The notes beneath the pieces were generated by a model. That model was given only the letters and a program-made list of their open reading frames with translations, was not told the origin of the DNA and did no database searches. Below, one piece after another: positions 7,783 to 64,000 of a DNA stretch of 64,000 nt. The stretch's first letter is position 1, and each line of letters opens with the position of its first letter. Position numbers and translations under genes: made by a program. Source of the DNA: Planctomycetota bacterium (GTDB lineage: Bacteria > Planctomycetota > UBA8108 > UBA1146); NCBI GenBank assembly GCA_032128395.1, contig JAQBGV010000184.1, forward strand, positions 3,907-67,906, written 5' to 3'.

Positions 7783-8411
7783 GCCCGAGCTTCGGGCCCT
7801 GGCTGCGAATTCTCGGCTCGGGGGCGATCGCTACTCTCGGGATCGCAGTTCTCTGGTCCAGCTGGCCCGAGGGAAGTCGGACCGCCGCTGCCCCTCGATC
7901 AGGTCCTTGGACCGTGCCGGTCCAGGCTGGTTGGCTCCCCGATCCTCTCGTTCTAGACCCCTGGGCGGAGCCCCAGCCGGCTCTCATCGAAAATCACCCG
8001 GCTCCGCACGACCCCGCTCCCGTGCTTCCTCCCCCGTCGGACGTCACCTTCATCTATGTCGTGAAACAGAACGACTCCCTCTGGGGCATCTCGGCCCGAG
8101 TCCTCGGTGATCCACTCCGGGTGAGCGAGATCGAACGTTGGAATCCGGGCATCGGTGAGCGGATGCTGCAGCCGGGGATGGAAGTCGTGCTTCCCGGGGC
8201 AGGTTCTTCGAATACTCAGACGCAGGCGCGAACCACGCCTCAAGAGATCCGACACCACCTCGTGAGCAAGGGGGAGAATCTGACCCGCATCGCGAACCGG
8301 TACGGCGTCACCGCGGAGATGATCTTCGAGGGAAATCGTGACCGGCTCCCCTCGATCGATCGAGTCCGCGTGGGCCAACGCCTGCGCATCCCCGAAGGGG
8401 GGGGACGATGA
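7779..8411 (+). CDS. Membrane-anchored protein with two LysM peptidoglycan-binding domains and no evident catalytic domain
   Basis: N-terminal TM segment; two LysM-like blocks (YVVKQNDSLWGISARV..., HLVSKGENLTRIANRYGV...); inserted between murG and murC with 4-bp overlaps. Confidence 0.6.
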   Translation: MSPSFGPWLRILGSGAIATLGIAVLWSSWPEGSRTAAAPRSGPWTVPVQAGWLPDPLVLDPWAEPQPALIENHPAPHDPAPVLPPPSDVTFIYVVKQNDSLWGISARVLGDPLRVSEIERWNPGIGERMLQPGMEVVLPGAGSSNTQTQARTTPQEIRHHLVSKGENLTRIANRYGVTAEMIFEGNRDRLPSIDRVRVGQRLRIPEGGGR

Positions 8412-9790
8412 TCATCGGTCCCAGGCTCCCGGAGACGGTTCACATCGTCGGCGTCGGGGGCAGCGCGACGAGCGGTCTCGCTCGCATCCTTCAGTCGCGC
8501 GGGGTTCGGGTGAGCGGATCCGACCTGACGCGAGAGTCGGTCGGTGCGCTCCACGCTGCGGGGATCACGGTGGAGGTCGGACACCGCACCGAGAACGTTC
8601 GTGAGCGAGTGGAGATGGTCGTGCACTCCGCGGCGATCCCCGAGTCGAATCCGGAGTTGGTCGAGTCGCGCCGACGCGGGGTCGAAGTCCTGAAATACGC
8701 CCAATTCCTCGGGCGACTGGTCGATCAGAGTTTCGGCATTGCGGTCGCCGGCACCCATGGCAAGACTTCGACCGCGGCGATGCTCGCGAGCGTCTGGATC
8801 TCCGCGGGACGGGAACCGTCCGTTCTGCTGGGCGGCCGCCACCCGGACCTGGGAGGGAACTGGCGCGCTGGCCGGGGCCCGGACTTCCTGGTCGAAGCGT
8901 GCGAGTTCGATCGCAGCTTCCACTCCCTCCATCCCCAGGCGGGGATCATCACGAACCTCGAGCTCGACCATCCCGACATCTACGCCGATCTCGGTGCGGT
9001 CCAGGAATCCTTCGGTGCGTTCATCGCCGGGTTCCGACCCCCGGGAATCATCGCTCTCGGGATCGACAGCGAGGGGGCCCGAACGCTCTCACGTCCTCCG
9101 GAGGTGCGGATCGAGACCTTTGGGTTCCGCCCCGACGCGCAGTGGCGCGCCACAATGCGTGAGGGGGGCAGCGCTCCGGTCTTCGAGGTGTACCGCAGAG
9201 GGCGCTCGTGGGGTAGGTTCCGCTTGCGGGTCGCCGGGCGGCACAACGTTCTCAATGCGCTCGGAGTGATCGCGTTGGCGGATGCTCTCGGCGTCGAGCG
9301 CGAGGCGATCGCCTCGGGGCTGGAGCGTTTCCCCGGAGTCGAGCGTCGTTTCGAGCACCGCGGCCGAGCCGGCGGCATCGACTGGGTCGATGACTTCGCG
9401 CACCATCCCACGGAACTTCGAACGGCGATCGCGACCGCCCGGGAGGTCTTCGGAGGGCGACGCCTCTGGGTCTTGTTCCAGCCACACCAGCACACACGCA
9501 TGCGGAGCTTCGGCGCCCAGTTCGCGGAGGAGCTCGCACGCGCGGACGCGATCGGCCTTCTTCCGGTCTACTCGGTCCGGGAGCCGGAGGGACGGGGATC
9601 CCCCGACCTTCTCGAGTCACTGGTCCGGGAGGTCCGTCGGCGCGGGGCACCGGTCGAGAGGTTCTCTTCCTTCGACGATGCCGCGCGCGGTCTTCCCGAT
9701 GTGCTTCTCCCTGACGATGTCTGTCTCGCCTGCGGCGCCGGAGACCTTTTCCTCCTCACTCGGAGACTCATCGAGGATCTGCGCAGATGA
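8408..9790 (+). CDS. murC: UDP-N-acetylmuramate--L-alanine ligase
   Basis: VHIVGVGGSATSGLA N-terminal Rossmann motif, Mur ligase P-loop AGTHGKTSTAAM. Confidence 0.85.
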   Translation: MIIGPRLPETVHIVGVGGSATSGLARILQSRGVRVSGSDLTRESVGALHAAGITVEVGHRTENVRERVEMVVHSAAIPESNPELVESRRRGVEVLKYAQFLGRLVDQSFGIAVAGTHGKTSTAAMLASVWISAGREPSVLLGGRHPDLGGNWRAGRGPDFLVEACEFDRSFHSLHPQAGIITNLELDHPDIYADLGAVQESFGAFIAGFRPPGIIALGIDSEGARTLSRPPEVRIETFGFRPDAQWRATMREGGSAPVFEVYRRGRSWGRFRLRVAGRHNVLNALGVIALADALGVEREAIASGLERFPGVERRFEHRGRAGGIDWVDDFAHHPTELRTAIATAREVFGGRRLWVLFQPHQHTRMRSFGAQFAEELARADAIGLLPVYSVREPEGRGSPDLLESLVREVRRRGAPVERFSSFDDAARGLPDVLLPDDVCLACGAGDLFLLTRRLIEDLRR

Positions 9791-10662
9791 TCCATCACAA
9801 GGTCCCCCTCGCTCCGTGGATGGGATACCGCACGGGCGGGATCGCGCGGTTCTTCGCCGCTCCGCGGACGGAAAAGGAATTCATTGCGGCCTTGCGATGG
9901 AAGGAGCGGGAAGGGACCCCGTGCTTCATCCTCGGCGGTGGGACGAACACGTTGATCGGAGACGATCTCTTCGATGGCCTGGTGATCGCGACCGCCGGCC
10001 TTCGCGCGAAGAGCACCATCTCCGATGGGCGACTCGAAGTGGGGACGGGGAAGACCCTACCCTCGTTGATCGGCGTGACGGTCCACGCCGGGTGGCAGGG
10101 GCTCGAGGGGTTCATCGGGATCCCGGGGACGATCGGCGGCGCGGTGTGGGGAAACGCCGGTGGCGCGGGGGGGGAGATTCAGCGACTCATCGAATCGGTT
10201 CTGGTCATCGAGAGGAATTCTGCCCCCCATTGGATCGAGGGCGCGACGCTCCCGTGGGACTATCGTCACTCTGGAATCGGTGACAGAGCGATTCTACGGG
10301 TACGCCTCCAGTTGCGTCCCGGATCGGAACCGAAAGCGCTCAAGGACCACGCGAATGCGGTACTTGCGCGGAAGCGTGCCACACAACCGCTCCACGCGCG
10401 GAGCGCCGGTTGCGTCTTTCGCAATCCTCCGGGGGATTCTGCGGGTCGACTGATCGAGGCCGCGGGGTTGAAGGGGACGTCACTCGGGGGAGCCCGGGTC
10501 TCCGATCGGCATGCGAACTTCATCGTCAACGAGGGGTGTGCGACCTCGGGAGAGATTCTCGCACTCATCGAGCGCGTGCGTTCCCGGGTCGCCACAAAGT
10601 TCGGAGTCTCGCTCCAGAGGGAGATCGTGAATGCCACCACGACCGAGGGGTGTCATCCATGA
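9787..10662 (+). CDS. murB: UDP-N-acetylenolpyruvoylglucosamine reductase
   Basis: FAD-binding GGGTN motif, C-terminal RSAGCVFRNP motif; overlaps murC stop. Confidence 0.85.
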   Translation: MIHHKVPLAPWMGYRTGGIARFFAAPRTEKEFIAALRWKEREGTPCFILGGGTNTLIGDDLFDGLVIATAGLRAKSTISDGRLEVGTGKTLPSLIGVTVHAGWQGLEGFIGIPGTIGGAVWGNAGGAGGEIQRLIESVLVIERNSAPHWIEGATLPWDYRHSGIGDRAILRVRLQLRPGSEPKALKDHANAVLARKRATQPLHARSAGCVFRNPPGDSAGRLIEAAGLKGTSLGGARVSDRHANFIVNEGCATSGEILALIERVRSRVATKFGVSLQREIVNATTTEGCHP

Positions 10663-11525
10663 TCCGCGCGATCGAGAGTCGAACATCGGGGAGAGCGGTC
10701 GGGGGGCGCTCCCTCTCAGGATCGATCCGGGCGCTCCTCTTGCTGGTCGGAGCACTCTTGGTGGTCGGCGGATCGATGGCGATGGAGCAACGAGTGTCAC
10801 GGAAGCTGGCGGCAACCGAGGGAGACTGGCAGTTCGTCACCTCAGCGCTCCCGCAGTGGTTTCCGGCCGGCTTCACCGGATGCCTCGCTGACCTCGATCG
10901 AATTCCGAACCAGGTCCCCTTGCGGAGCGCGACCTGGCGACGTCGCATCGCCGCTGCACTCCGCAGCAATCCTTGGATCGAGAATGTTTCCAGAGTCGAG
11001 CGCGCGGTGGATGGGATCGCGTTCGAGGCGCAGTTCCTTCGACCGGCGGTCGCGGTTCGGGCCGATGGTGGGTACCTCCTCATCGACTCGGAGGGATGCG
11101 TGATCGATCTCCAGCCTGGTCCCGAACTGCTCCCTTCCTGGGGAGTCCCGGAGTACATCCCTGGCGGTCGTGAGTTTCCGCGTCTTGCATCGGGGACCCG
11201 CCTCGACGATCCCGAATTCGAGGAGTGTCTCTCTCTCGTGCGCGTTCTCTGGGAGAGCCGGACCCTGGATCGATTTCCCGGCGAGATCCTTGCCCTCGAT
11301 GCCTACACGATGACCGACACCCCAGGGCTCCTCTGGCGGATGCACTCCCGCACCGGGGTTGCCCTCTACTGGGGTCGGGCGCCGGCCTCCACGCATGTGT
11401 CACTCCGACCCGCCGAAGAGAAGATCCGCTCCCTACAGGAGGTTCTCCGCCTCGGGGACCGAATCCGCGGCGCCGGGGGAATCACGCTGCACGGAGCGGA
11501 GCCGATGGTCGTCGGTCGCCTGTGA
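10659..11525 (+). CDS. ftsQ: FtsQ/DivIB-like cell division protein (POTRA-containing bitopic protein); the annotated ORF from 10410 is a 5' extension inside murB
   Basis: Short cytoplasmic N-terminus, single TM (LLLLVGALLVVGG), periplasmic POTRA-like region; position after murB; ATGA overlap with murB stop. Confidence 0.55.
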   Translation: MIRAIESRTSGRAVGGRSLSGSIRALLLLVGALLVVGGSMAMEQRVSRKLAATEGDWQFVTSALPQWFPAGFTGCLADLDRIPNQVPLRSATWRRRIAAALRSNPWIENVSRVERAVDGIAFEAQFLRPAVAVRADGGYLLIDSEGCVIDLQPGPELLPSWGVPEYIPGGREFPRLASGTRLDDPEFEECLSLVRVLWESRTLDRFPGEILALDAYTMTDTPGLLWRMHSRTGVALYWGRAPASTHVSLRPAEEKIRSLQEVLRLGDRIRGAGGITLHGAEPMVVGRL

Positions 11526-11705
11526 TCACCACATTCGGGCCCATCGGACCGGGGGATGCCTCGACTCGGTCTGGCCCTGGTCGGTCGGACTCGTTATCTT
11601 GAGCCCTGATCGAGGGGCGATGGCGAGCATCGAGAACGTTTTTCGGGGCATGACTCCGAAGCGAAGTCCCGATTCTGAAACTGACCACGGAAGGGGAGAG
11701 GCACG

Positions 11706-11951
11706 GTGCAGGCCGATGACCGGTACCGGCGCCTGTTCGGTGAGATCGCTCTGGAGAGCGGATTCGTCGATGCGGCTCAGCTCTACGAGGCCCTGACCGT
11801 TCAGGCGAAGCGCCGCGCCGAGGGGAGGGCTGATAAGCTCCTCGGACAGATTCTCCTCGAGCTGGGATACCTCTCACCCGAGCAGCTGCAGGAGGTCATC
11901 GATCACCTGTACCCCCCGGAGCGGGAGAAGAACCCCGCTCTCGATCAGTAG
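11706..11951 (+). CDS. 81-aa protein made of two tandem MshEN/T2SSE_N-type 24-residue motifs (possible minimal c-di-GMP-binding MshEN domain)
   Basis: LFGEIALESGFVDAAQLYEALTVQ and LLGQILLELGYLSPEQLQEVIDH match the (R)LGxxLxxxGxxxxxxLxxALxxQ tandem motif of GspE/MshE N-terminal domains; good RBS (AGGGGAGAGG) before GTG start. Confidence 0.45.
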   Translation: MQADDRYRRLFGEIALESGFVDAAQLYEALTVQAKRRAEGRADKLLGQILLELGYLSPEQLQEVIDHLYPPEREKNPALDQ

Positions 11952-12054
11952 TCACGACTGGAGAGCGATGACCGAGCGCGACGATGGGCGCGCGTTTCGG
12001 CGGCGAGTGCTCTCACCCGAGGCGGAGCGATGAGACCCGACCCGAGGCGGCACG

Positions 12055-14124
12055 ATGAGTGAAGATCCGAAGCCGAAGCGCCCGAAGGCGCCGGTCCCGA
12101 AGGGTCGGCGTGCGCCGGTCCCCGCGCGCAAGCGGCTAGCAGCTCCCGGGGCCGCCCCCCGCCCTGCGACGCCGTCCCCTCAACAACAACCCGCTTCGGC
12201 CGGTTCTCCCGGTGCGAAGCCACCGGCGACGTCACCTCCACCCGTCGATGCGCAACGAGCATCGGCAGAGAGAGCGCAGGCCGCCGCAGAAGCGCAGTCC
12301 AGGGAAGTGGCGCAAGCCACGGCAGAGCAGCAGGCACGGGTTGCAGCTGCACGCCGAGCTGCGGAGCAGGCCGCACAACATGCTGCGCAGCAGCAGGCGC
12401 TCGCCGAGAAGGCCACTCGCATCGCGGCCGCTCGCGAAGCAGCGGCACGCAAGGCCGCGCAGGAGGCCGCAGCGGGCCAGAGGTCTGCACCCGCTGCTCC
12501 CGCGAAGCGAGCGGTCGGCCCCGCGAGGCCGACCCCTGCACCGCAAGCGAAGTCCCCCCCGCAGCGAATTCCATCGAAGGCCGGAACTCCGACTCCGGCG
12601 ACCAGACCACCGGCTCGTCGCCCCGGTTCTTCTCCAACATCTCCGCCCGCCCGTTCCACCCCCGGCGGAGCGCGCACTCCACCTCAACGAGGCGCCCGGA
12701 CCACTCCCCGCCCCGCTCGACACGCTCCGGCCGTTGCCGGAGCGGAGGGGAAGGAGCAACCTCGGGGTGAGCTCGTGCCCCATGGAGGTGGCAGTTCGAA
12801 GGTCCCACTCATCGGCGGAATCGTGGCGGTGGTCGCCGTCCTCACACTGGGTGGGTTCCTCTACTTGGGCGGGGATCCGGAGCCGGTGCCTGACGAGACG
12901 GCGCGCGTCGAGATCCCTCAGGTGGATCCGCGGCTCGAGGCTTCCAAGAAGGCCCTCGAGCAGGCGATCGCCTACGAGAAGGAGAATCCGCGGGAATTCG
13001 TGGAGATGATCATCCAGTACGACCAGATCGCGGAGGTCTTCGCCAGCCTGCCCCCCGCTGTCGAGTCGGCGGAGAGGAAGGCCGCCGCGGTCGACGCCTG
13101 GCGCAGCGCCGTCGATGTGGCCCGCCAGCAACTCTCGACCGATGTGGATCAACTCGTCGCCAAGTTGCGCTATTCCGAGGCCCTTGCGATGCTGGACTCC
13201 CCGGACCAGGTATTCCAAGGAGCGGATGACTTCTTTTCGCCCGACCATCCGGTACTCCGCTGGATCGGTTCTCGCCGGAAGGAGGTCAAGATCCTCGTCA
13301 CCGCCCAGGCTCGACTCCAGGAGCTGGAGGGCAAGGCCGCGAGGTATGGCGAGCACGAGGAGATCGCTCTGGCGATCCTGGCTGCGTTCCCCGAAAAGTA
13401 CGAGACCGAAGCAGCTCCGGTGTGGAGCCTCAAGCAGGAGACCCTCGCCCAGATCAAGCGCGACGGACTGAGTCGTTGGATCGACACCGAGCAGAGCGCC
13501 GAACTCGATAGGGTCGAGACCGCCAGAGTCCAGGCAGTGGAAGAAGAGAGCCGCCGCGCGGCGCGGTGGGCGAGCCTGAAAGACGGCAAGGCGTGGTTCC
13601 CACACCTCGGGAGGCACAACCTCTACAACTGGATCTCGACCAGCGACGCGATCCGACAGGAACCCCAGTGGCGGTTGACCGTGCGCGAGGACCAACCCCT
13701 GTTGATCGCGGACAACGGCTACGGCAACGACATGTGGATCGGGCCTTTCACGAATCACTGGAAGGACTACGTGCTCGAGTTCGAGATGCGTCTCCTCCGG
13801 GGCGAGGTGTCGGTCTCACCTCGCACGACTCTCACCTCAGGGGAGTACGTACGAACGATCGGGGATCAAACGAGCCCGATGTTCGTGTTCTCCGAGGCAA
13901 ACGGTGTCGCGGCCGGGAAATGGGTTCGCGTGACGATCGAGGTGAACGGCACTTCGCTACGAGCGGACGTGGCGGGACGATCCGAGCCACTCGTACTCGA
14001 CCCCGAAGAGTCCCGTATCCCCGAACTGGGCGGATTCATCTTCTGGGTTCCCGATGGCTCTCAGGTCGAGCTGCGCGGAATTCAGAGCAAGCTCATCAAC
14101 TCGACTCGCGACGGTCCCTTCTGA
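12055..14124 (+). CDS. Bitopic membrane protein with a basic Ala/Gln/Pro-rich low-complexity cytoplasmic N-terminal region (~260 aa), one TM helix, and a periplasmic C-terminal beta-sandwich (DUF1080 / concanavalin-like) domain
   Basis: Composition and hydrophobic segment VPLIGGIVAVVAVLTLGGFLYLGG; C-terminal WKDYVLEFEM...GKWVRVTIEVNG resembles 3-keto-disaccharide hydrolase/DUF1080 fold; antisense ORFs here rejected. Confidence 0.5.
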   Translation: MSEDPKPKRPKAPVPKGRRAPVPARKRLAAPGAAPRPATPSPQQQPASAGSPGAKPPATSPPPVDAQRASAERAQAAAEAQSREVAQATAEQQARVAAARRAAEQAAQHAAQQQALAEKATRIAAAREAAARKAAQEAAAGQRSAPAAPAKRAVGPARPTPAPQAKSPPQRIPSKAGTPTPATRPPARRPGSSPTSPPARSTPGGARTPPQRGARTTPRPARHAPAVAGAEGKEQPRGELVPHGGGSSKVPLIGGIVAVVAVLTLGGFLYLGGDPEPVPDETARVEIPQVDPRLEASKKALEQAIAYEKENPREFVEMIIQYDQIAEVFASLPPAVESAERKAAAVDAWRSAVDVARQQLSTDVDQLVAKLRYSEALAMLDSPDQVFQGADDFFSPDHPVLRWIGSRRKEVKILVTAQARLQELEGKAARYGEHEEIALAILAAFPEKYETEAAPVWSLKQETLAQIKRDGLSRWIDTEQSAELDRVETARVQAVEEESRRAARWASLKDGKAWFPHLGRHNLYNWISTSDAIRQEPQWRLTVREDQPLLIADNGYGNDMWIGPFTNHWKDYVLEFEMRLLRGEVSVSPRTTLTSGEYVRTIGDQTSPMFVFSEANGVAAGKWVRVTIEVNGTSLRADVAGRSEPLVLDPEESRIPELGGFIFWVPDGSQVELRGIQSKLINSTRDGPF

Positions 14125-14312
14125 CGCGAAGCGCCGAAGGGCTTCGGTTGCCGCGAAGAATTTTCCTTCGTCGGTCAGGCTCGAAACGGGTAGTGGTAGG
14201 GCCGTCCGGGACCAGCTGCCAGAGCGGCAGGGTGCGGAGCCCGGGGGTGACCAGCCCCTGTCGATCTGGCAGGCGATGCGGCCGCGGTGGTCCCAGCGAT
14301 TCCGTAAGTGGT

Positions 14313-14347
14313 TCTCTGGCAAGAATTTCCGCTCCCCCTCCGCATCT
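14313..14347 (+). promoter_or_regulatory. Possible sigma-32-type heat-shock promoter upstream of groEL copy 1
   Basis: TCTCTGGCAAGAA ... CCCCCTCCGCATCT resembles TCTCnCCCTTGAA-N13-15-CCCCATnT; about 95 bp before groEL start; no CIRCE seen. Confidence 0.3.
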
Positions 14348-14440
14348 CTAGTTGGCCCTCTCTTTGCTCCGCCGCGACGACTCTGGCCCATGATCTGAAG
14401 CTCGGTCCGGAGCGGACTCTCCGGCAAGGAGGAAGCAAAG

Positions 14441-16072
14441 ATGGCAAAGCAGATCACATTCGACGACGCGGCCCGAGAGGCGCTGCTCGCCGGAGTGAGG
14501 AAGTTCGCCCGCGCGGTGAAGTCTACCCTCGGCCCTCGGGGTCGGTACGCGGTCATCGATCGCGGATGGGGTGCACCGAAACTCACCAAGGACGGCGCGA
14601 CCGTCGGAGACGAAGTCGAGCTCGGGGACCCGGTCCAGAACATCGCAGCCCGCATGATGCGGGAGGCAGCCGACAAGACCGCGAAAGAGGCGGGAGACGG
14701 GAGCACCACCGCGACCGTACTCGCGGAGGCGATCTTCCGTAACGGTCTCCGCAACGTCGTCGCCGGGGCGAACCCGATCCTGATCCAACGCGGGATCGCG
14801 GCCGCCGCCACGCGGGTGATCGACCGTCTGCACGAGATGGCATTCGAAGTCGAGGGTGACGAGCTCGTCCACGTCGCTACGATCGCCGCCAACAACGATG
14901 CGGTGATCGGAAAGCAGATCGCGAAGGCGCTCAGCGCAGTTGGCGAAGATGGTGTGATCAGCATTCAAGAGGGGAAGAGCCTCGAGACCACGCTCGACGT
15001 GGTGGAGGGTCTTCACTTCGACCGGGGGTACCTCTCCCAGTACTTCATCACCGATGCTGAAGCGTCGAAGGCGGTCATCGAAGATCCGTACATTCTCATC
15101 CTAGAGGAGAAGATCTCGAACCTCAGCCAGATCATTCCGGTGATGGAAGCAGTGCTCCAGAAGAAGAAGCCGCTCCTTTTCATCGCCGAGGACATCGATG
15201 GTGAGGCTCTCTCGACCCTAGTCGTGAACAACATGCGGGGCGTGCTGCGCTGCGCAGCGGTCAAGGCGCCGGGGTACGGCGATCGCCGGAAGGAGATGCT
15301 GACCGATATCGCGACCGCGACCGGGGGAACCGTGATCTTCAAAGATCTCGGCCTCGAGCCGGACTCGATCACCCTCGCCCACCTCGGTCGGGCGAAGAGG
15401 GTGGAGATCACCAGCAATCAGACGACGATCATCCGCGGGGCTGGCAAGAAGACTGCGGTCGAGGAGAGGGTCCGCCAGATCCGCCTCGAGCTGGAAGAAG
15501 CCCGGAGCGACTACGACAAGGAGAAGCTCCAAGAGCGGCTCGCTCGGCTCGTCGGCGGGATCGCCGAGATTCGCGTCGGGGGGGCCAGTGAGGCTGAGGT
15601 CAAGGAGCGGAAGAAGCGCTACGAGAACGCACTGAGTGCTACGCGATCCGCGGCCGAAGAGGGGATCCTCCCCGGGGGCGGGGTCGCGTTGATCCACGCG
15701 GGCGACGCGGTGTCTGTGATGCGCCTCAAGGACCCTCAGGAGAAGGTCGGAGCGCAGATCCTCGCGGTGGCTCTGGAGGCTCCGTTCCGTCAGCTCGCTC
15801 GAAACTCGGGGGAGGAGCCGAGCCAACTGCTCCGCAAGATTCGGGCTGCAAAAGAGCCGAGCTGGGGATTCGACTTCATGAAGAAAGAGGAGTGCGACCT
15901 GATCGAGTCCGGCGTCATCGACAGCTGCAGAGTCGTCACTTCGGCCCTGAAGAACGCTGTCTCGGTGGCGACGATGATCCTCACCTCGGACGCGGTGATC
16001 ACTGAGATTCCGAAGGAGACCGAGGACGAGCACGACCACGACCACGATGAGGCTGGGTTCGGCGGGTTCTGA
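14441..16072 (+). CDS. groEL: Chaperonin GroEL, copy 1, with His/Asp-rich C-terminal tail (HDHDHDEAGFGGF) instead of a GGM repeat
   Basis: MAKQITFDDAAREALLAGV..., GDGSTTATVLA ATP-binding motif, full-length Cpn60. Confidence 0.9.
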   Translation: MAKQITFDDAAREALLAGVRKFARAVKSTLGPRGRYAVIDRGWGAPKLTKDGATVGDEVELGDPVQNIAARMMREAADKTAKEAGDGSTTATVLAEAIFRNGLRNVVAGANPILIQRGIAAAATRVIDRLHEMAFEVEGDELVHVATIAANNDAVIGKQIAKALSAVGEDGVISIQEGKSLETTLDVVEGLHFDRGYLSQYFITDAEASKAVIEDPYILILEEKISNLSQIIPVMEAVLQKKKPLLFIAEDIDGEALSTLVVNNMRGVLRCAAVKAPGYGDRRKEMLTDIATATGGTVIFKDLGLEPDSITLAHLGRAKRVEITSNQTTIIRGAGKKTAVEERVRQIRLELEEARSDYDKEKLQERLARLVGGIAEIRVGGASEAEVKERKKRYENALSATRSAAEEGILPGGGVALIHAGDAVSVMRLKDPQEKVGAQILAVALEAPFRQLARNSGEEPSQLLRKIRAAKEPSWGFDFMKKEECDLIESGVIDSCRVVTSALKNAVSVATMILTSDAVITEIPKETEDEHDHDHDEAGFGGF

Positions 16073-16121
16073 TCGAGCGATCGTTCACCAGCACAACACA
16101 CTGACCGGATGGATGACGAGC

Positions 16122-17735
16122 ATGTCCAAGCAGATCCTTTTCGACGACGAGGCGCGCCGCCAGATGCTCTCCGGAGTACGCCAGCTCGCCCGGGCGGTCG
16201 GGCTCACGTATGGCCCCTCGGGGCGAAACGTGATGATCAATAAGAGTCTCGGCAAGGTGAGCGTAACGCGTGACGGCCTGAACGTCTCGCGCGAGGTCGA
16301 GATCGAGGAGCCGTTCCAGAACATGGGCGCAAAACTGCTCGGCGAAGTCGCGCAGAGGACCCACAAGGAGGTAGGGGATGGCACTACGAGCGCGGTGATC
16401 CTCGCGGACTCACTGATCCTCGAAGGACAACGATACGTTGGCCACGGCGTCAATCCGATCGCCCTCCGCGTTGGGATCGAGAAGGGCGTCGCGAGTGCGG
16501 TGGCCGCTCTCGAGAAGAGCGCGATTCCGGTCGACCAGCGCAAGATGATCGAACAGGTAGGAACGATCGCGAGCAATGACGCGGAGCTTGGCCAGCTCTT
16601 CGGCGAAGCGATGCACAAGGTCGGACTCCAGGGAGTCGTCACCGTGGAGGAGACCGACGGTGTAGAGACCCTCCTCGACCTGGTCGATGGATTCGAGATC
16701 GACAAGGGCTACGTCTCTCCCTATTTCATCACCGATGCCCAGAACCTAGAGGCGGTCCTCGATGACGTGCTGATCCTCGTCACCGACCGGAAGATTTCCT
16801 CGCTCGCCGAGATCCTCCCTGTGCTCGAGCAAGTGGTCACTTCCGGGAAACCGCTGCTCATCGTCGCCGATGACGTCACCGGCGAGGCTCTCGCCGCGCT
16901 GATTCTCAATCGGCTTCGGGGAGTCCTGAAGGTCGCCGCGATCAAGGCTCCGGGATTCGGAGATCGTCGCAAGGCGCTCCTCGAGGACTTCGCCGTGATG
17001 ACCGGCGGGACCTTCTTCGCGAAGGACACGGGCTTCGAATGGAGCAACACGACGACGAATGACCTCGGCCGGGCGAAGAGAGTCGAGATCTCGAAGGACA
17101 AGACGATCGTCTTCAAGGGGGCGGGGAAGAAGGCCGAGGTCGATGCTCGCTGCCGTCAAATCGAGGCGCAGATCGAGCAGACCACTTCGACCTACGACAA
17201 GGAGAAGCTCGAGGAGCGTCTCGCCAAGATCTCGGGGCAGATCGCAGTGATCCGGATCGGTGGCCATTCGGCAGTCGAGATCAAGGAGCGGAAGGGCCGC
17301 GCCGATAATGCGCTCCACGCCACCCGCGCGGCGATGGAGGAAGGGGTGATCCCAGGGGCGGGGACCGGTTACATCCGAGCTATCGCCGCAGTTCGGGAAA
17401 CACGGACCCGCGGTGACGAGAAGTTCGGGGTCGAGGTGGTCGCGCGAGCGTTGCGGGCCCCGCTGGTCCGGCTCGTCGACAATCTGGGACTCGACGGCCA
17501 GGCGATCGCGGGCGAAGTCGAGGAGCGTGGGGCCAAGGACGAGATTCACCACGGGTTCCTTGCGCAGAGCGGAAAAATTGTCGACCTGGTCCGCGCCGGC
17601 GTTCTCGATGCGGTGAAGGTGAGCCGGGTCTCGCTCCAGAACGCGGCGAGCGTGGCATCCCTCTACCTGACATCGGACACCGCGATCACGAATGTCGAGA
17701 AGAAGTCGGCGCCGGTCGAAGGGGCGATGCACTGA
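16122..17735 (+). CDS. groEL: Chaperonin GroEL, copy 2 (the annotated ORF from 16047 is a 5' extension)
   Basis: [16 protein letters not shown]..., [11 protein letters not shown] motif, full-length Cpn60; 50 bp after copy 1. Confidence 0.9.
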
Positions 17736-17757
17736 TCGTCTCCAGGGGAGTGCTTCG

Positions 17758-18882
17758 ATGAGCCCTCGGGACTACTACGAAGTCCTCGGAGTATCTCGCG
17801 AGGCGGGCTCCGAGGAGATCAAGAAGGCCTACCGTCAGCGGGCCCTGAAACATCATCCGGACAAGAACCCGGGGGATGCGGAGGCGGAGCGTCGATTCAA
17901 GGAGGCCGCCGAGGCGTACGACGTCCTCCGCAACGGTGAGAAACGGTCGGCGTACGATCGGTTCGGTCACGCGGGCCTCACCGGGGCGGGTGCTGCACCA
18001 TCAGGATTCTCGAACGTCGAAGATATCTTCTCGGTGTTCGGGGACATCTTCGGCGGCGGTTCGATCTTCGAGGACATTTTCGGCGGGGCCGGCGGGCGCG
18101 TGCATTCGCAGCAGGGCGAAAACCTGCGCGTCGAGATTCCTATTTCGTTCAATGAAGCGGGAAACGGGACGCACCGGGAACTCGCCGTTACCCGACGTGT
18201 TGCCTGTTCCACCTGCGGCGGCAACGGCGCGCGTCCCGGGACAGAACCGACGGTGTGCAATCTCTGCCGCGGCGTGGGCCAGGTCCAGCAGTCCCAGGGT
18301 TTCTTCTCCATTCGATCGGTCTGTCCGCAGTGCCGCGGGGATGGGATGCGGAACGAGAATCCGTGCCAGGACTGTCGCGGCGATGGTCGTCAGCGACGCA
18401 AGGATGATGTCCGGGTCGAGATCCCCGCCGGGGTTCACGATGGAACCCGCATTCGGGTCACGGGGCGAGGCAACGATGGTCACCGCGGGGGCCCAGCGGG
18501 GGACCTGCACGTCGTGATCCGGCTCGAAGCACATGAGTTCTTCCAGAGGCTCGAGAACGACGTTCTCTTCGAACTGCCGGTTTCATACTCCCAAGCGGTT
18601 CTCGGCGCCAAGGTCGAGGTCCCAACCCTGCGCGGGCGCGCGACGATGTCGATCCCGGGGGGAACCCAGAGTGGGGAGATCCTGCGCCTCCGGGGGCAGG
18701 GGTTCCCGAGCCTGCACGGCCATCGGCCGGGAGACCAGCTGGTCAAGGTGGTCGTGGACGTTCCCAAGAAGCTCAGTAGCGAGCAGGAGGAGATTCTCCG
18801 ACGGCTCGCTGAACTGGAGGAGAAGGAGGTCGGCTCCCGCCGTCACACCTTCTTCGAAAAGTTGAGGAATTACTTCGAGTGA
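17758..18882 (+). CDS. dnaJ: Molecular chaperone DnaJ (type I, four CxxCxGxG repeats)
   Basis: J domain with HPD (KHHPDKNP), Gly/Phe-rich region, [32 protein letters not shown] zinc finger. Confidence 0.9.
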
Positions 18883-18895
18883 GGACTCGGAACCG

Positions 18896-19468
18896 ATGAA
18901 CCTCTCCCATGAACCGCGTCCCCACGAGGACGAACTCGCCGAGGATCAGAATTCGCAGGCCTCCGATGGATCTTCTCCAGAGGGGGAGAGCAGCGACACC
19001 GATCCGATGGACGACCTCGAGGACGAATCTGCGACCCAACTCCTGATGTACATCGACCGACTGCAGAGGCTGCAGGCGGAATTCGACAACTTCCGAAAGC
19101 GGAGCCAGCAAGAGCTCCGGGACCGCGAGGAGCGCACGATCGCGCGGGTGATCCGCCAGATCCTTCCGGTGATCGATGATCTCCGGCACGCTGCCCGCGC
19201 TGAGGAGCAGGCAGGGGAGGGGATCGGCGAGGGATTGCGCATCATTCTCGACAAGGTCGGAGCGTTGTTGCTGGAGCTCTCCATCGAAGAGATTCCGGCG
19301 AAGGGAGAGCCGTTCGATCCTCGCTGGCACGAGGCGATGGTCCATCAGGAGAGTGACGAGGTGTCGCCCGGCGCCGTCCTCACAGAGCTCGAGCGAGGAT
19401 ACCGCCTCCGGGATACCCTCGTCCGACCGGCGCGAGTGATCGTCGCCAAGTCGCCGAAGGGGGAGTGA
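18896..19468 (+). CDS. grpE: Nucleotide exchange factor GrpE
   Basis: Acidic N-terminus, coiled-coil LQRLQAEFDNFRKR, C-terminal GEPFDPRWHEAM motif. Confidence 0.85.
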   Translation: MNLSHEPRPHEDELAEDQNSQASDGSSPEGESSDTDPMDDLEDESATQLLMYIDRLQRLQAEFDNFRKRSQQELRDREERTIARVIRQILPVIDDLRHAARAEEQAGEGIGEGLRIILDKVGALLLELSIEEIPAKGEPFDPRWHEAMVHQESDEVSPGAVLTELERGYRLRDTLVRPARVIVAKSPKGE

Positions 19469-19471
19469 GGT

Positions 19472-19795
19472 GTGCCGACCTACGAGTACGAGTGTGAGGG
19501 ATGTAGCCATCGCTTCGAGCGCTTCCAGCCGATGGGGAGTCCGATCCCGAAGAGCTGTCCAGAGTGCAGGAAGCGAAAGATCCGCCGATTGATCGGGAGT
19601 GGCGCAGGTATCATTTTCCGCGGGAGTGGCTTCTACCAGACCGACTACCGTAGCGCGGACTATCAGAAACGCGCGAAGGAGGACTCGGGAGGAGCGTCGG
19701 GAGGAAAGAGCGAGAAGCCGAAAAAGGCCGACACCGCGAAGGGCGGTGACACCAGTGGCGGCGAGAAGAAGAAGTCCCCCGGGAGCGACACGTGA
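19472..19795 (+). CDS. FmdB-family zinc-ribbon protein with Lys/Gly-rich tail
   Basis: MPTYEYECEGCSHRFE...CPECRK CxxC-x-CxxC pattern typical of FmdB/putative regulatory zinc ribbon. Confidence 0.6.
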   Translation: MPTYEYECEGCSHRFERFQPMGSPIPKSCPECRKRKIRRLIGSGAGIIFRGSGFYQTDYRSADYQKRAKEDSGGASGGKSEKPKKADTAKGGDTSGGEKKKSPGSDT

Positions 19796-59712: not shown

Positions 59713-60804
59713 GTGACTCCGATCGATCTCTTCACCAGCTTCGCAACTCTCCTCGGAGCGTGTGTCGGCAGCTTCCTCAACGTCTGCATCTATCGCATTC
59801 CCACCGAGGGGATGACGATCGCCCGGCCACGAGGCTCGTTCTGTCCGAAGTGCCGTGCCCCGATTCGTTGGCACGACAACATCCCGATCCTCGCCTGGCT
59901 AGCCCTCGGCGGGAAGTGCCGCGCCTGTCGCGCTCCGATCTCCTGGCGATATCCGGTGATCGAGCTCCTGACCGCAGCCCTCTTTCTCGTCATTTGGCTC
60001 CGCTTCGGTCCCAGCGACGCGACCGAACTCCCATCGCTCGCGATGTGGGGGACGGTGGCCTTCTGGTGGGCGACCTTCGCCGCGATGTTGGTCATTGCGA
60101 TGATCGACATCGACCACCGAATCATCCCTGACGAGATCAGCGTCACCGGCGGTGCGGCGATCCTCCTCGTCGTCCCCCTCCTCCACGGGGTTCCCCCCGA
60201 CCGGTCTGGGCTCGAGACGATCCAGCGGGTGCTCGAGCCGCTCGATCGGGCCATCGCCCCCGGGTCCGGGTCCTGGATCCAGGGCGGACTGGCGTTGTGC
60301 TTCGGAGCGGCGGCGATGGCGGCGATGCGGCGCTTCAGTCGCGACTGGCAGGGGAATCGGCGGACTTGGTGGGGGACCCGCTGGGCCGGCGCGGTCGGGG
60401 CTGTGGCCGGGATCGGGGTCGGAGGGCTGCTCTGCCACACTCTTTGGCTCCATGGGCCGTCCGCGGCCGCGCTCGTTCCCTCTCTCCTCGGCTCGGCGAT
60501 CGGGGCGGGCACGATCTACGCGATCGGCGTCGCCGGGAAGCTGGCGTTCCGAAAAGAGGCGATGGGATTCGGCGACGTGAAGCTGATGGGGCTGCTCGGT
60601 GCATTTCTCGGCCTCCAGTACGTCTTGCTCGCGATCTTCGTGGCGAGCTTTCTCGGATCCGTGATCGGGGTCGGGCTGCGACTCATCACTCGATCGAGCT
60701 ACATCCCCTTCGGGCCGTTCCTCTGCGCGGGAGCCTCGATCTTGGTGCTTGCGAGCGATCAGGTCGACGCCGCGATTCGATGGTATCTCAGTCTGTTCCG
60801 GTGA
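59713..60804 (+). CDS. pilD: Type IV prepilin peptidase (A24 family)
   Basis: N-terminal CxxC...CxxC zinc-binding (CPKCRAPI...CRACRAPI), conserved DIDH... and GFGDVKL motifs. Confidence 0.8.
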   Translation: MTPIDLFTSFATLLGACVGSFLNVCIYRIPTEGMTIARPRGSFCPKCRAPIRWHDNIPILAWLALGGKCRACRAPISWRYPVIELLTAALFLVIWLRFGPSDATELPSLAMWGTVAFWWATFAAMLVIAMIDIDHRIIPDEISVTGGAAILLVVPLLHGVPPDRSGLETIQRVLEPLDRAIAPGSGSWIQGGLALCFGAAAMAAMRRFSRDWQGNRRTWWGTRWAGAVGAVAGIGVGGLLCHTLWLHGPSAAALVPSLLGSAIGAGTIYAIGVAGKLAFRKEAMGFGDVKLMGLLGAFLGLQYVLLAIFVASFLGSVIGVGLRLITRSSYIPFGPFLCAGASILVLASDQVDAAIRWYLSLFR

Positions 60805-60935
60805 CGCTCACGACACCCGGATCGAACATTTCCGACGGCGTCCGAGCCGCTCCCCTTGTCCCCGGAGCGGGCCCTGATTAGAGTGCCACCCCGGCGAAAA
60901 GCCGCGTCCGCACTGAGAAAATCGGTTGGGGAAGG

Positions 60936-61700
60936 ATGGACTCCACGATGCACATGCGCTCCCGACTCGCCTTGATCTCCCTCACGATGGTCGTGCTTCC
61001 TGGTTTTTCCGGGGGGTGCGGAGTGATGAGCCTCCAGAAGGAGGTCGATTGGTACAAGCAGCAGCTCTCGAGCAGCGAGTCGGACCGGCATCGGCTCGAA
61101 CTCGAGCTCGCGCAGAGCGAAGGCTCGCAAAAGGGCTGGTCCGATCGCACCTCCGATCTGAGGGGGGAGCTCGACCGGGCCGAGCAGGAGCTCCTGGCGC
61201 TGCGTGCTCAGCAAGAGTCGCGCGACCTCGAGCCGGTCGATATCCAGCCGGTCTCTGGGACCTTCCCGGGGGACCCTGAGGACTTCGCCGGGATCGAAGG
61301 CGTTCAGGCGACCCGCGGTGAGAACGACGAAATCCGCCTGACGCTCGACCAGCAGATCCTTTTTGCCGCTGGGAGCGTGTCGATTCGGAAGAGCGGAGCC
61401 GAGACCCTGGGTCGCATCGCCGACGTCATCGGTCGGAGTTACCCCGGCCGCGAGCTGAGGGTCGAGGGCCACACCGACAACGCGCCCCCCGAGAAGGTGA
61501 AGGCGCTCTATCCGACGAACTGGGAACTCTCGACCGCCCGCGCCTGCGTGGTCCTGCGAGCCCTTATCGACACCGGCAAGGTCGATGCGCGGCGCGCGGC
61601 TGCGATTGGGTATGCGGATCAACACCCGGTCGCGGAGAACACCACAGATGCCGGGCGTCACCAGAACCGCCGGGTCGAGGTGATCGTTCGCGGGCGCTGA
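60936..61700 (+). CDS. OmpA/MotB-family peptidoglycan-associated lipoprotein with coiled-coil spacer
   Basis: Lipobox FSGGCG; OmpA_C motifs LRVEGHTDNAP, NWELSTARA, NRRVEV. Confidence 0.7.
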   Translation: MDSTMHMRSRLALISLTMVVLPGFSGGCGVMSLQKEVDWYKQQLSSSESDRHRLELELAQSEGSQKGWSDRTSDLRGELDRAEQELLALRAQQESRDLEPVDIQPVSGTFPGDPEDFAGIEGVQATRGENDEIRLTLDQQILFAAGSVSIRKSGAETLGRIADVIGRSYPGRELRVEGHTDNAPPEKVKALYPTNWELSTARACVVLRALIDTGKVDARRAAAIGYADQHPVAENTTDAGRHQNRRVEVIVRGR

Positions 61701-61967
61701 CCGGGGGATCCCGTTCACGGGGGACTTCCAGGGTCTTCGGGAAGCCTTGCAACCCCTCGTGAGCCTCCGTACCCTACCGAACTCGGGCGTGTTTCCACCT
61801 CTCTCGGGCGAGGACGGCTCTGTTCCTCGATCGAAAATGCCCTCGACTCGGCGCGCCGCTCCCGGCGGCGTACTTTCCTCCATCGGTCCAAGCACCGAGG
61901 AGAGTGAGCCGATCGGAGGAGAAGGGTCGACCGCCCCCTCCCGACGGGATGACAGGAGAGGTGCAGA

Positions 61968-63995
61968 GTGGCCCAGAGGATCCGCAACATCGCCATCGCC
62001 GGACACGGAACCTGCGGCAAGACGACTCTGCTCGAAACCCTTCTGGCCCTCGGGCGAGCGATCCCCCGCGTGGGGAAGGTCGACGACGGGACCTCGATCC
62101 TCGACCATTCCTCGGAGGAGCGCTCCCACCGATTCACGGTCGCCGCGACTCCCTGCTACATCGAGCATGATGGGGTTCTCCTCCAGATGCTCGACACGCC
62201 CGGATACGCCGACTTCCGTGGTGCGGTGACCGAGGCATTCGCGGCGGTCGAGACTGCCCTCATCGCGATCGACGGCTCCGCTGGGATCCGGGTGAACACC
62301 CGCAGGGTCTGGGATGACGCCGAGCGCGCCGGCCTCGGTCGAGTGATCGTGATCATGCGACTCGACACCGAGAACGCTCGATTCGACGAGCTGGTCGAGG
62401 AGATCCGCAGCACTTTCGGAAAGCAGTGCGTTCCCCTCGAGTTTCCCGATGAAGCGGGCCCCTCCTTCAGTTCGGTCGAGAACGTGCTCGAGACGGGAGC
62501 GACCGGTTCGGAGCGCTCCCAGCGGATGTTCCAACAGATGCGCGAGGCGATCATCGAGTCGGACGAATCGATGATGGAGCGCTATCTTGCCGAGGAGCAG
62601 ATCTCCGACGCGGAGGTACGAGACACGTTCTCGACCGCGGTCCTCTCGGGTGCCGTCGTGCCGATTCTCTGCTGCTCATCGGTCAAGGGGATCGGGATCA
62701 ACAAGTTGCTCCACTTCCTGGTCTCGATTCCTCCGACCCATGATTCCGCGGTGCAACGAAAGCTGGTCGACGCGGAGGGGAACGAGAGCGTGGGGTCTGC
62801 GTCGGGAAGTGCGAGTGATCCGCTGATCGCCCAGGTGTTCAAGATCGAGCTCGACCCTTTCGTCGGGAAGCTCTCCTACGTCCGCATCCACTCGGGAACG
62901 CTGACTTCGAACACGCCGGTCCAGAACTTGACCCGGCGGGTGAAGGAGAAAGTGAACACGATCCTACGGATGCAGGGGAAAGACCATACGACGATCGAGA
63001 GCGCCGGTCCGGGCGAGATCGTCGCTCTCCCCAAAGTGGAGGAACTTTCGGTAGGGGACTGCCTCGGCGATGGAAAGTCATCGCTTTTCCCGGCGAAGAT
63101 CATCCACCCGAGCTCGATGGTGAAGCTTGCGGTCGAGCCGAAGAATCGGAACGACGAGACCAAGCTCTCCGAAGCGTTGAACAGGCTGCACGAGGCCGAC
63201 CCGACCTTCCAGTCGGCCCGGATCCGCTCTACCCACGAGCTCGTCATCGCGGGGAGGTCCTCCCTGCACCTCGATCTGATCCTCGAGCGCCTGAAGGACC
63301 AGTTCAAGATCGAGGTGGTGACGCACGTCCCGACCACCGCGTACCTCGAGTCGATCGGGGGGAGCTCCGAGGCGCACCATCGCCACCGGAAGCAGACGGG
63401 GGGGCGTGGCCAGTTCGGCGAGGTCTACATCCGTCTCGCCCCCGCCGATCGAGAGAAGTCACTCGTTTTCGTCAACAAGGTCGTCGGTGGCTCCGTCCCC
63501 CGGGAGTACATCCCCGCCGTCGAGAAGGGGGTGGCCGAGACGATGGAACACGGGGTGCTCGCGGGCTGCCCGGTGATCGGGTGCGAAGTGACCCTCTACG
63601 ATGGTGGGTATCACGCCGTCGACAGCTCCGAGATGGCGTTCAGGACTGCCGGTCGCGAGGCGTTCAAGAAGGCGTTTCTCGAGGCAAAGCCGGTCCTCCT
63701 CGAGCCGATCCTCAATCTCGAGGTGCATGTCCCCGGTCAATTCATGGGGGACATCACCGGCGATCTGAACAGCCGCCGTGGCCGGATCCAGGGGATGGAT
63801 CAGGATGGGGACCTGCAGGTGATCAAGGCTCAAGTTCCCGAGGCGGAGATGAAGACCTATTCCACCGATCTTCGCTCGATGACCGGGGGCGAGGGGAGCT
63901 ATTCCGTCGATTTTTCCCACTACGACACGGTTCCGGCGAGCGTCCAGCAGCAGATCGTGGCGGCGATCAAGAAGCAGCAGGAAGAAGCGAGCTAA
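61968..63995 (+). CDS. Elongation factor G paralog (EF-G-like translational GTPase) with divergent G1 and switch II
   Basis: Five-domain EF-G architecture; G1 AGHGTCGKTT (canonical AHIDAGKTT), switch II DTPGYADF (canonical DTPGHVDF), G4 present; GTG start with AGGAGAGG RBS. Confidence 0.8.
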   Translation: MAQRIRNIAIAGHGTCGKTTLLETLLALGRAIPRVGKVDDGTSILDHSSEERSHRFTVAATPCYIEHDGVLLQMLDTPGYADFRGAVTEAFAAVETALIAIDGSAGIRVNTRRVWDDAERAGLGRVIVIMRLDTENARFDELVEEIRSTFGKQCVPLEFPDEAGPSFSSVENVLETGATGSERSQRMFQQMREAIIESDESMMERYLAEEQISDAEVRDTFSTAVLSGAVVPILCCSSVKGIGINKLLHFLVSIPPTHDSAVQRKLVDAEGNESVGSASGSASDPLIAQVFKIELDPFVGKLSYVRIHSGTLTSNTPVQNLTRRVKEKVNTILRMQGKDHTTIESAGPGEIVALPKVEELSVGDCLGDGKSSLFPAKIIHPSSMVKLAVEPKNRNDETKLSEALNRLHEADPTFQSARIRSTHELVIAGRSSLHLDLILERLKDQFKIEVVTHVPTTAYLESIGGSSEAHHRHRKQTGGRGQFGEVYIRLAPADREKSLVFVNKVVGGSVPREYIPAVEKGVAETMEHGVLAGCPVIGCEVTLYDGGYHAVDSSEMAFRTAGREAFKKAFLEAKPVLLEPILNLEVHVPGQFMGDITGDLNSRRGRIQGMDQDGDLQVIKAQVPEAEMKTYSTDLRSMTGGEGSYSVDFSHYDTVPASVQQQIVAAIKKQQEEAS

Positions 63996-64000
63996 GAGGC

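Follow-up and report, generated by a model that had tools for sequence, protein, structure and literature searches.

The EFG II (EF-G2) subfamily comprises widespread, fast-evolving second or third copies of EF-G that lie outside the str operon. Its founding structure is that of Thermus thermophilus EF-G-2 (1WDT / 2DY1), a protein that reportedly both binds and hydrolyses GTP and sustains poly(Phe) synthesis. Another member, the non-essential EF-G2 of Mycobacterium smegmatis (9K0Z / 9K10), carries Tyr in place of the catalytic His, is devoid of ribosome-dependent GTPase activity and has been described as trapping post-translocated ribosomes; its Tyr98 is turned from the gamma-phosphate, and the H88Y substitution nearly abolishes the GTPase activity of EF-G1. 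The EF-G2 of Bacteroides thetaiotaomicron (7UVP / 8DMF; NF058620) is also an EF-G paralogue without the catalytic His; according to papers that describe the work on it, it translocates without GTP hydrolysis and is induced by carbon limitation. EFGII is capable of slow translocation (PMC4342817).

Signature positions for the subfamily, in 1WDT numbering, were defined by Margus 2011 (PMC3150367), and include Gly16 (Ala in EFG I), Leu25 (Thr in EFG I) and Thr291 (Ile in EFG I), together with a relaxed G2 motif from which RGITI is gone but Thr or Ser is retained at the fourth position; in actinobacterial EFG II this motif is qqRSV (Margus 2011). A further mark of the subfamily is that its genes always share the genome with another EF-G, either EFG I or spdEFG1 plus spdEFG2. 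Other EF-G family paralogues are spdEFG1 and spdEFG2 and the mitochondrial EF-G1 and EF-G2. A three-residue KDG insertion in switch I is the mark of spdEFG1 (PMC3150367). spdEFG2 falls together with mitochondrial EF-G2 (mtEFG2), which retains G1-G5 and the catalytic His. According to genome surveys, spdEFG1 and spdEFG2 are the main factors of planctomycetes and EFGII is an occasional third copy, as in Isosphaera pallida, where it is found alongside both.

The gene and its product

The window, that is, the whole stretch of 64,000 nucleotides that was analysed, encodes an EF-G paralogue of 675 amino acids (Table 1). Its GTG start is shared by two close orthologues, L002 and L003. A tblastn search with the protein against all 64 kb returned only the self-match, so that a second EF-G was not found within the window. 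No Rfam match at E<=1 was obtained upstream (61500-62100), where no regulatory leader was found, and a scan of 61400-64000 found neither a sigma-70-like promoter nor a convincing terminator. An NCBI contig and a Logan contig both carry the identical protein, the Logan contig stopping at this gene, and a scan of GTDB recovered relatives at 80% identity or less.

Table 1. Position of the EF-G paralogue gene and of its motifs in the window.
Feature	Position	Strand	Remarks
Shine-Dalgarno-like AGGAGAGG	61954..61961	+	6 nt 5' of the GTG start; read from the sequence
EF-G paralogue ORF	61968..63995	+	GTG start; TAA stop at 63993-63995
G1 / P-loop AGHGTCGKTT, residues 11-20	61998..62027	+	Canonical AHIDAGKT replaced
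G2 / switch I HRFTV	62127..62141	+	Canonical RGITI; Mg-coordinating Thr57 retained; structure alignments
G3 / switch II DTPGYADF, residues 76-83	62193..62216	+	Tyr80 at the catalytic His position
Tyr80 codon TAC	62205-62207	+	Same TAC in both close orthologues
G4 MRLD	62355..62366	+	Canonical NKxD; guanine-specifying Asp133 retained; Met130 only in the window sequence
Domain IV loop HRKQTGGRGQ, residues 473-482	63384..63413	+	Homologue conservation
Domain IV tip loop HAVDS, residues 549-553	63612..63626	+	Counterpart of the canonical YH[DE]VDSS tip

Pfam recognises GTP_EFTU, EF-G_D2, EFG_III, EFG_IV and EFG_C in the window protein, so that the full set of five EF-G domains, G' included, is present. 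The AF2 model (pLDDT 89.3) gave its best TM-score in Foldseek, 0.91, with the ribosome-bound EF-G2 of B. thetaiotaomicron (8dmf), and reached 0.85-0.87 with 1wdt. The domain IV tip loops that reach the decoding centre are invariant family-wide: H473, Q476, G478, G479, G481 and Q482 do not vary among 120 homologues, and H549, D552 and S553, which align with YHEVDSS, are found in 119 of them. These loops, the domain architecture and the conserved domains III-V are common to the window protein and canonical EF-G (EFG I, fusA, TIGR00484), whereas the canonical motifs AHIDAGKT, RGITI and DTPGH are all changed.

The GTPase centre

The altered P-loop and switch II that the original prediction had called are both read as such in the ORF translation, and its placement of a Tyr at the catalytic His position of switch II withstood the alignment check. 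HMMER aligns the protein with solved EF-G structures without any gap; Tyr80 then lies exactly under the His of DTPGHVDF, with GHGTCGKT opposite AHIDAGKT. A Tyr occupies this column in 119 of the 120 nearest database homologues, and in the 77 related GTDB loci that cover the switch II region the residue is Y in 57, F in 13, A in 5, D in 1 and G in 1, with no H at all. The P-loop fits GxxxxGKT, with Gly12 for the canonical Ala and Gly14 and Thr15 for the canonical Ile and Asp, and is well conserved among the 120 homologues (G12 and H13 in 118 each, K18 and T19 in 119 each, L21 in 109). A cysteine in this loop (GHGTCGKT) is typical of the clade.

At the switch I column of Thr57, 61 of the 120 homologues have Thr and 58 have Ser. 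The first position of G4 varies (T 92, N 17, S 8, A 2, M 1); both close orthologues read TRLD with the codon ACT, and the window codon is ATG. The nucleotide-binding scaffold is intact, as seen in the GxxxxGKT P-loop, switch I Thr57, DxPG and G4 Asp133. [quoted passage not shown]

Assignment to the EFG II subfamily

Several comparisons indicate that the window protein very probably belongs to EFG II. When the G domain was scored against the PDB, the best match was T. thermophilus EF-G-2 (1WDT, 105 bits; GHAGSGKTTL / DAPGYGDF), followed by M. smegmatis EF-G2 (9K0Z, 93 bits), with Bacteroides EF-G2 (7UVP) at 80 bits and the canonical EF-Gs at 69-80 bits. In the full-length search the highest bit score went to a canonical EF-G (7pao, 462 bits; 1WDT, 427 bits), since the subfamilies have domains III-V in common. 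Among the NCBIfam models, NF009381 scored 777 bits (cut-off 583), whereas the canonical TIGR00484 reached 554 bits, below its cut-off of 659. The N-terminal fragments of the window protein and of 1WDT gave the same top three models in the same order (NF009381, NF009891, NF009377), and for both TIGR00484 scored far lower. The Bacteroidota-specific model NF058620 gave 476 bits against a cut-off of 1000, which places the window protein outside that group. A ribosomal protection protein of the Tet(M)/Tet(O) type was also considered and rejected, as NF012153 gave 309 bits against a cut-off of 775.

The signature positions point in the same direction. Window Gly12 and Leu21 align with 1WDT Gly16 and Leu25, Leu247 corresponds to Leu264, which contacts Leu25, and in domain II Gly337 and Lys356 correspond to Gly333 and Lys352; these last two columns hold Gly in 115 and Lys in 119 of the 120 homologues. 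The relaxed G2 is seen in HRFTV. At the column of Thr291, the window protein has Ile293 instead; this column is variable in the clade (V 28, S 28, T 23, I 13), and the aligned residue of 1WDT is itself Val. In a neighbour-joining tree a non-His group formed by the window protein, 1WDT, 9K0Z, 7UVP and 21 GTDB loci was separated from the EF-G of E. coli, that of M. pneumoniae and mtEFG2 in 300 of 300 bootstraps, this tree being built from distances over 151 G-core columns only, with few canonical references and with mtEFG2 (7NSH) as a proxy for spdEFG2. Across the 80 related GTDB loci, neither tuf nor rpsL adjoins the gene.

The likeness to T. thermophilus EF-G-2 extends over the five-domain fold, the motifs GHxxxGKTTL, H-R-x-T-V (HRTTV in T. 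thermophilus EF-G-2) and DxPGYxDF, with Tyr for the catalytic His, and the residues Leu264, Gly333 and Lys352 (1WDT numbering). Nevertheless, the two proteins are only 36% identical over the Foldseek alignment and come from different phyla; T. thermophilus EF-G-2 has TKLD as G4 and a shorter G' region, whereas the window protein has MRLD and a P-loop Cys. As EF-G2 / EFG II normally has the catalytic His replaced, usually by Tyr, the substitution found here is real but ordinary, and the window gene is a planctomycete addition to an already known EF-G2 family. The right label for it is an EF-G2 / EFG II-type paralogue, neither the housekeeping translocase nor a spdEFG, and past correct annotation this has little importance.

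Predicted function

The Thermus, Bacteroides and Mycobacterium members act differently, and thus belonging to the family does not by itself reveal the mechanism. Most likely, the window protein is an accessory, GTP-binding ribosomal translocase whose GTP hydrolysis is predicted to be weak or uncoupled. It would bind GTP and dock at the ribosomal factor site as EF-G does, domain IV would enter the A site, and the protein would promote or stabilise the post-translocation state, with hydrolysis slow or uncoupled from the step. Such an accessory factor may act in slow growth or energy limitation, where the main factors alongside it would be spdEFG1 and spdEFG2, as expected in planctomycetes. For the slow, hydrolysis-poor mechanism taken by itself the balance is about even; weighted together with EFG II membership, the reading is a probable one.

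The GTPase-impaired, specialised role suggested by the original prediction is only partly borne out: it fits the EF-G2 proteins of M. smegmatis and Bacteroides, but the Tyr-bearing T. thermophilus EF-G-2 hydrolyses GTP, and for this reason the Tyr alone is no proof of GTPase loss. It is possible, though rather unlikely, that the window protein acts as its mycobacterial counterpart does, binding GTP with neither GTPase nor translocation activity and trapping post-translocation or non-rotated ribosomes so as to slow translation under stress. It shares the exact switch II sequence DTPGYADF with M. smegmatis EF-G2, a protein for which the missing ribosome-dependent GTPase, the averted Tyr98 and ribosome trapping have all been described, and EF-G1 H88Y is nearly without GTPase. 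However, His13 of the P-loop and, in HRFTV, Thr57 of switch I have been retained in the window protein, as in T. thermophilus EF-G-2 (GHAGSGKT and HRTTV), whereas the M. smegmatis P-loop is GPSGGGKT, without the His, and the actinobacterial G2 is qqRSV. The G-domain scores (105 bits to 1WDT, 93 to 9K0Z) and the hydrolysis of GTP by T. thermophilus EF-G-2 despite its Tyr also argue against trapping of the mycobacterial kind. In G4, M. smegmatis EF-G2 has TKLD, with Thr148 and Leu150. The B. thetaiotaomicron protein differs from the window protein in having DCPGSDDF in switch II (Ser, not Tyr) and GSSGSGKT as P-loop.

Somewhat less likely still is an alternative translocase that hydrolyses GTP fully and simply tolerates the Tyr. 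The nearest solved G domain, that of T. thermophilus EF-G-2, has Tyr at the same position, and GTP binding, GTP hydrolysis and poly(Phe) synthesis were reported for that protein. On the other hand, the H-to-Y change abolishes GTPase in a canonical EF-G background, and the activity is missing in two other members of the family. In addition, the window protein has the Asn/Thr of G4 further altered to Met, and the monovalent-cation-binding Asp of the P-loop is missing from it. Slow or uncoupled hydrolysis by an accessory translocase is the reading that we favour.

The EF-G2 family is topical, as members of it show that GTP hydrolysis is dispensable for translocation and as they act in starvation or stress, and the planctomycete clade offers one further natural variant for comparative biochemistry. 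In this variant a P-loop His and a P-loop Cys are combined with a switch II Tyr and a switch I Thr, a combination that could help to account for GTP hydrolysis by some Tyr-bearing EF-G2s but not by others.

Genomic context

The window gene is located outside the str operon, with none of rpsL, rpsG and tuf adjacent to it. Upstream it is flanked by AroK, PilD and an OmpA-like gene, and in orthologous loci PilT, PilB and PilC follow downstream. In the Planctomycetia clade the EF-G2 gene lies within a type IV pilus locus, in which the arrangement PilD, OmpA-like, EF-G2, PilT, PilB, PilC, PAS histidine kinase, sigma-54 response regulator is preserved down to 54-58% protein identity. It is conceivable but improbable that EF-G2 expression is tied to a pilus/PilSR-like regulon, so that translation would be retuned at surface attachment or starvation, and that the P-loop Cys could provide a redox-sensitive control of nucleotide binding. 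The pilus synteny is confined to the near clade (L002-L005) and absent from all remoter EF-G2 loci; linkage to pilus genes was for this reason discarded as a feature of the EF-G2 family and treated as synteny of the lineage.

Relation to the spdEFG factors

To the original prediction the protein looked like a member of the divergent spd family, which has been reported in Spirochaetes, Planctomycetes and delta-proteobacteria. This attribution, by which it would be spdEFG1 or spdEFG2, the split translocation and recycling factors, is very improbable, since the protein has no KDG insertion and groups with EF-G2 / EFG II. The host is indeed a planctomycete, the nearest loci coming from MAGs labelled 'uncultured Planctomycetia' and 'Planctomycetota', and both spdEFG1 and spdEFG2 do occur in Planctomycetes. 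However, residues 5-160 align to canonical EF-G without gaps, and therefore the switch I insertion that marks spdEFG1 is absent from the window protein. As for spdEFG2, its relative mtEFG2 has canonical G1, G2 and G3 motifs, which the window protein has lost, and in the tree mtEFG2 (7NSH, a proxy for bacterial spdEFG2) stands apart from the window protein with 100% bootstrap. The score against mtEFG2 (7l20) was just 208 bits, compared with 427-462 for EF-G-2 and EF-G, and in published tables EFGII appears for a planctomycete as a third gene, distinct from the two spdEFG genes.

Selection on the gene

A decaying duplicate under relaxed selection, or a canonical fusA mis-sequenced at the His codon, can be dismissed for practical purposes: although several residues of the catalytic centre are gone and the G4 Met130 is unique to the window sequence, the ORF of 675 codons is intact and has a Shine-Dalgarno sequence, 58 columns are invariant across 53 homologues, selection has been maintained (dN/dS about 0.11, G domain included), and against a sequencing error stand the Tyr in 119 of 120 homologues, the TAC codon common to the orthologues and the same protein obtained from the NCBI and Logan contigs. 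Tyr80 is thus neither a chance substitution nor a sequencing error. Comparison of the window gene with L002 gave pN 0.13 and pS 0.62, from which the above dN/dS is derived, and the G domain alone showed the same pattern as the whole gene; the EF-G paralogue gene is under purifying selection.

Family assignment

The gene encodes a new, uncharacterised EF-G2 in a planctomycete clade, although proteins of this kind are already known: earlier publications and structures cover the family, the divergence of its G domain and the replacement of His by Tyr (PMC3150367; PMC4342817; bioRxiv 10.64898/2026.05.25.727771; PDB 1WDT, 9K0Z, 8DMF). All five EF-G domains are present (Pfam), and the protein is placed in the 'elongation factor G' subfamily NF009381 of NCBIfam (777 bits, cut-off 583) and fails the canonical EF-G equivalog TIGR00484 (554 bits vs cut-off 659). 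The top three PDB matches of the G domain alone were the three structurally characterised EF-G2 proteins, from T. thermophilus (1WDT; GHAGSGKTTL, HRTTV, DAPGYGDF), M. smegmatis (9K0Z; switch II DTPGYADF) and B. thetaiotaomicron (7UVP/8DMF; switch II DCPGSDDF). The defining features of EFG II are the P-loop residues Gly16 and Leu25, a relaxed G2 in which Thr/Ser is kept, Leu264, and Thr291, Gly333 and Lys352 in domain II (Margus et al. 2011, PMC3150367). Every one of these features was found except Thr291, a position that is Ile here, variable within the clade and Val in the aligned 1WDT. Moreover, a 359-residue fragment of T. thermophilus EF-G-2 and the corresponding N-terminal part of our protein gave the same top-three NCBIfam order (NF009381 > NF009891 > NF009377, the EF-G2 model), with TIGR00484 far lower for both.

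In a neighbour-joining tree (151 G-core columns, 300 bootstraps), the protein, 21 GTDB loci, 1WDT, 9K0Z and 7UVP split in 300/300 replicates from the EF-Gs of E. coli and M. pneumoniae and mitochondrial EF-G2 (mtEFG2). The protein and four Planctomycetia/Planctomycetota MAG orthologues formed a clade with 100% support. An AlphaFold2 model built with 53 homologues as input (mean pLDDT 89) superposes on EF-G structures, with the highest TM-score (0.91) for ribosome-bound Bacteroides EF-G2 (8dmf), followed by EF-G on hybrid-state ribosomes (0.88, 7pjv; 0.87, 9rtu), T. thermophilus EF-G-2 (0.85-0.87, 1wdt) and M. smegmatis EF-G2 (0.85, 9k0z).

The original prediction had placed the gene in the spdEFG family of Spirochaetes, Planctomycetes and delta-proteobacteria, an assignment that has to be abandoned. 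A KDG insertion in switch I defines spdEFG1 (PMC3150367), which is ruled out since the protein has no switch I insertion. As for spdEFG2, it is the sister of mtEFG2, which retains G1-G5 and the catalytic His; it is rejected on the clean separation from mtEFG2, its stand-in in the tree, and in full-length comparisons mtEFG2 scored only 208 bits vs 427-462 for EF-G-2 and EF-G. The gene is a planctomycete EFGII, a third kind beside spdEFG1 and spdEFG2. The confusion is probably explained by the genome table of Atkinson 2015, where these two are the main pair in all planctomycetes listed and Isosphaera pallida has EFGII on top of both. According to the literature, genomes with EFG II always have another EF-G as well; no second EF-G lies within the 64-kb window.

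The divergent G domain

The altered P-loop (AGHGTCGKTT, residues 11-20) and the Tyr at the catalytic-His position (switch II DTPGYADF, residues 76-83) had been predicted exactly. In HMMER alignments to solved EF-G structures, gapless over residues 5-160, GHGTCGKT falls under AHIDAGKT, and the His of DTPGHVDF has Tyr80 as its counterpart. Of the 120 nearest database homologues, 119 have Tyr in this column, and the codon TAC is shared by the closest pair of orthologues (L002 and L003). Comparison with L002 indicates purifying selection (pN 0.13, pS 0.62, dN/dS ~0.11), with the same pattern in the G domain by itself. The substitution is not noise.

We retrieved 80 relatives from GTDB species genomes, belonging to Planctomycetota, Victivallales, Nitrospirota, Acidimicrobiia, Armatimonadota, Mollicutes and Melainabacteria. 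None of the 77 that cover switch II has His at the catalytic position (Tyr 57, Phe 13, Ala 5, Asp 1, Gly 1); therefore its loss is the norm of the family and not a peculiarity of this gene. Phe occurs in Nitrospirota and Fimbriimonadaceae, and five Planctomycetota MAG loci (L007-L010, L014) form a second EF-G2-like clade with neither the P-loop His nor the Tyr (GAGGAGKTTL; DTPGA[LI]DF or DCPGALDF). Thus, the replacing residue is clade-specific within the family.

Two further residues of the G domain deserve mention. Met130 opens G4 (MRLD here vs NKxD in canonical EF-G) and is found at this position in no other of the 120 homologues; since the closest orthologues have Thr (ACT vs ATG), it is a lineage-specific change. 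Cys16 immediately precedes the invariant GK of the P-loop and is common to the near clade (L002-L005), Victivallis loci (GHSGCGKT) and 31/120 homologues; redox sensitivity is one conceivable role, but a purely speculative one.

Possible activity

The scaffold for nucleotide binding is kept (GxxxxGKT, Mg-coordinating Thr57, DxPG, guanine-specifying Asp133). What canonical EF-G uses to couple docking on the sarcin-ricin loop to hydrolysis is replaced: Ile and Asp in the P-loop, Arg, Gly and Ile in RGITI, and the catalytic His. Domain IV has two loops reaching the decoding centre, and both are invariant over the 120 homologues. The protein would bind GTP and occupy the ribosomal factor-binding site with domain IV in the A site, as EF-G does, and hydrolysis may be slow or uncoupled from this step.

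Experiments in the family bracket the possible activities. GTP hydrolysis and support of poly(Phe) synthesis are reported for T. thermophilus EF-G-2, which also bears Tyr, and slow translocation by EFGII in place of EF-G is possible (PMC4342817). For Bacteroides EF-G2, translocation without GTP hydrolysis, >200-fold induction on carbon limitation and a critical role in intestinal colonisation are reported. In EF-G1, the H88Y mutation nearly abolished GTPase activity.

The G domain resembles Thermus EF-G-2 more than mycobacterial EF-G2, as the P-loop His is kept, switch I reads H-R-x-T-V with its Thr, and 1WDT gives the higher score. We therefore favour, with moderate confidence, an accessory, slow, hydrolysis-poor translocase. 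A pure ribosome trap is held less likely, and a fully active GTPase slightly less likely again. The 'specialised, possibly GTPase-impaired' role proposed initially is plausible but unproven.

Genomic context

This DNA, of 65% GC, comes from an uncultured planctomycete. The loci nearest to it are labelled 'uncultured Planctomycetia bacterium' (L002 only 'uncultured bacterium'), and close homologues in NCBI MAGs simply 'elongation factor G'. None of the 80 GTDB relatives has tuf or rpsL as a neighbour, and neither an Rfam element nor a sigma-70-type promoter was detected upstream of EF-G2.

Features of the EF-G2 gene and its surroundings
Feature	Location	Strand	Remarks
EF-G2 ORF	61968..63995	+	675 codons, GTG start, TAA stop; single open reading frame
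Shine-Dalgarno-like element	6 nt upstream of GTG start		AGGAGAGG; sequence reading
Cys16 codon	62013-62015
Met130 codon	62355-62357
Upstream genes, in order			aminotransferase, multi-PDZ protein, shikimate kinase, prepilin peptidase, OmpA-domain protein
Type IV pilus locus	59713-61700		window
Type IV pilus locus	5644-12863		L002
Type IV pilus locus	12449-19623		L003
Type IV pilus locus	3540-6107		L004
Type IV pilus locus	9870-16989		L005
Antisense ORF	60759-62534	-	overlaps EF-G2 and OmpA-like genes

The window ends 5 nt past the EF-G2 stop codon. In the near-clade loci L002, L003, L004 and L005 (54-80% identity), PilT-like and then PilB-like ATPases follow ~400 bp after EF-G2, and in L002, L003 and L005 genes for a PilC-like platform protein, a PAS histidine kinase and a sigma-54 response regulator come next; the L004 contig stops inside the PilB homologue. 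In this Planctomycetia clade, EF-G2 lies inside a type IV pilus locus, with the prepilin peptidase (PilD) and the OmpA-domain protein on the upstream side. This order extends to orthologues with as little as 54-58% EF-G2 identity and was not found at more distant EF-G2 loci; we treat it as lineage-specific gene order.

Several long ORFs, the longest of 591 aa, run antisense to the EF-G2 and OmpA-like genes. The 'conservation' that they seem to show in relatives follows that of the genes on the sense strand, and such ORFs look like a common artefact in DNA of 65% GC.
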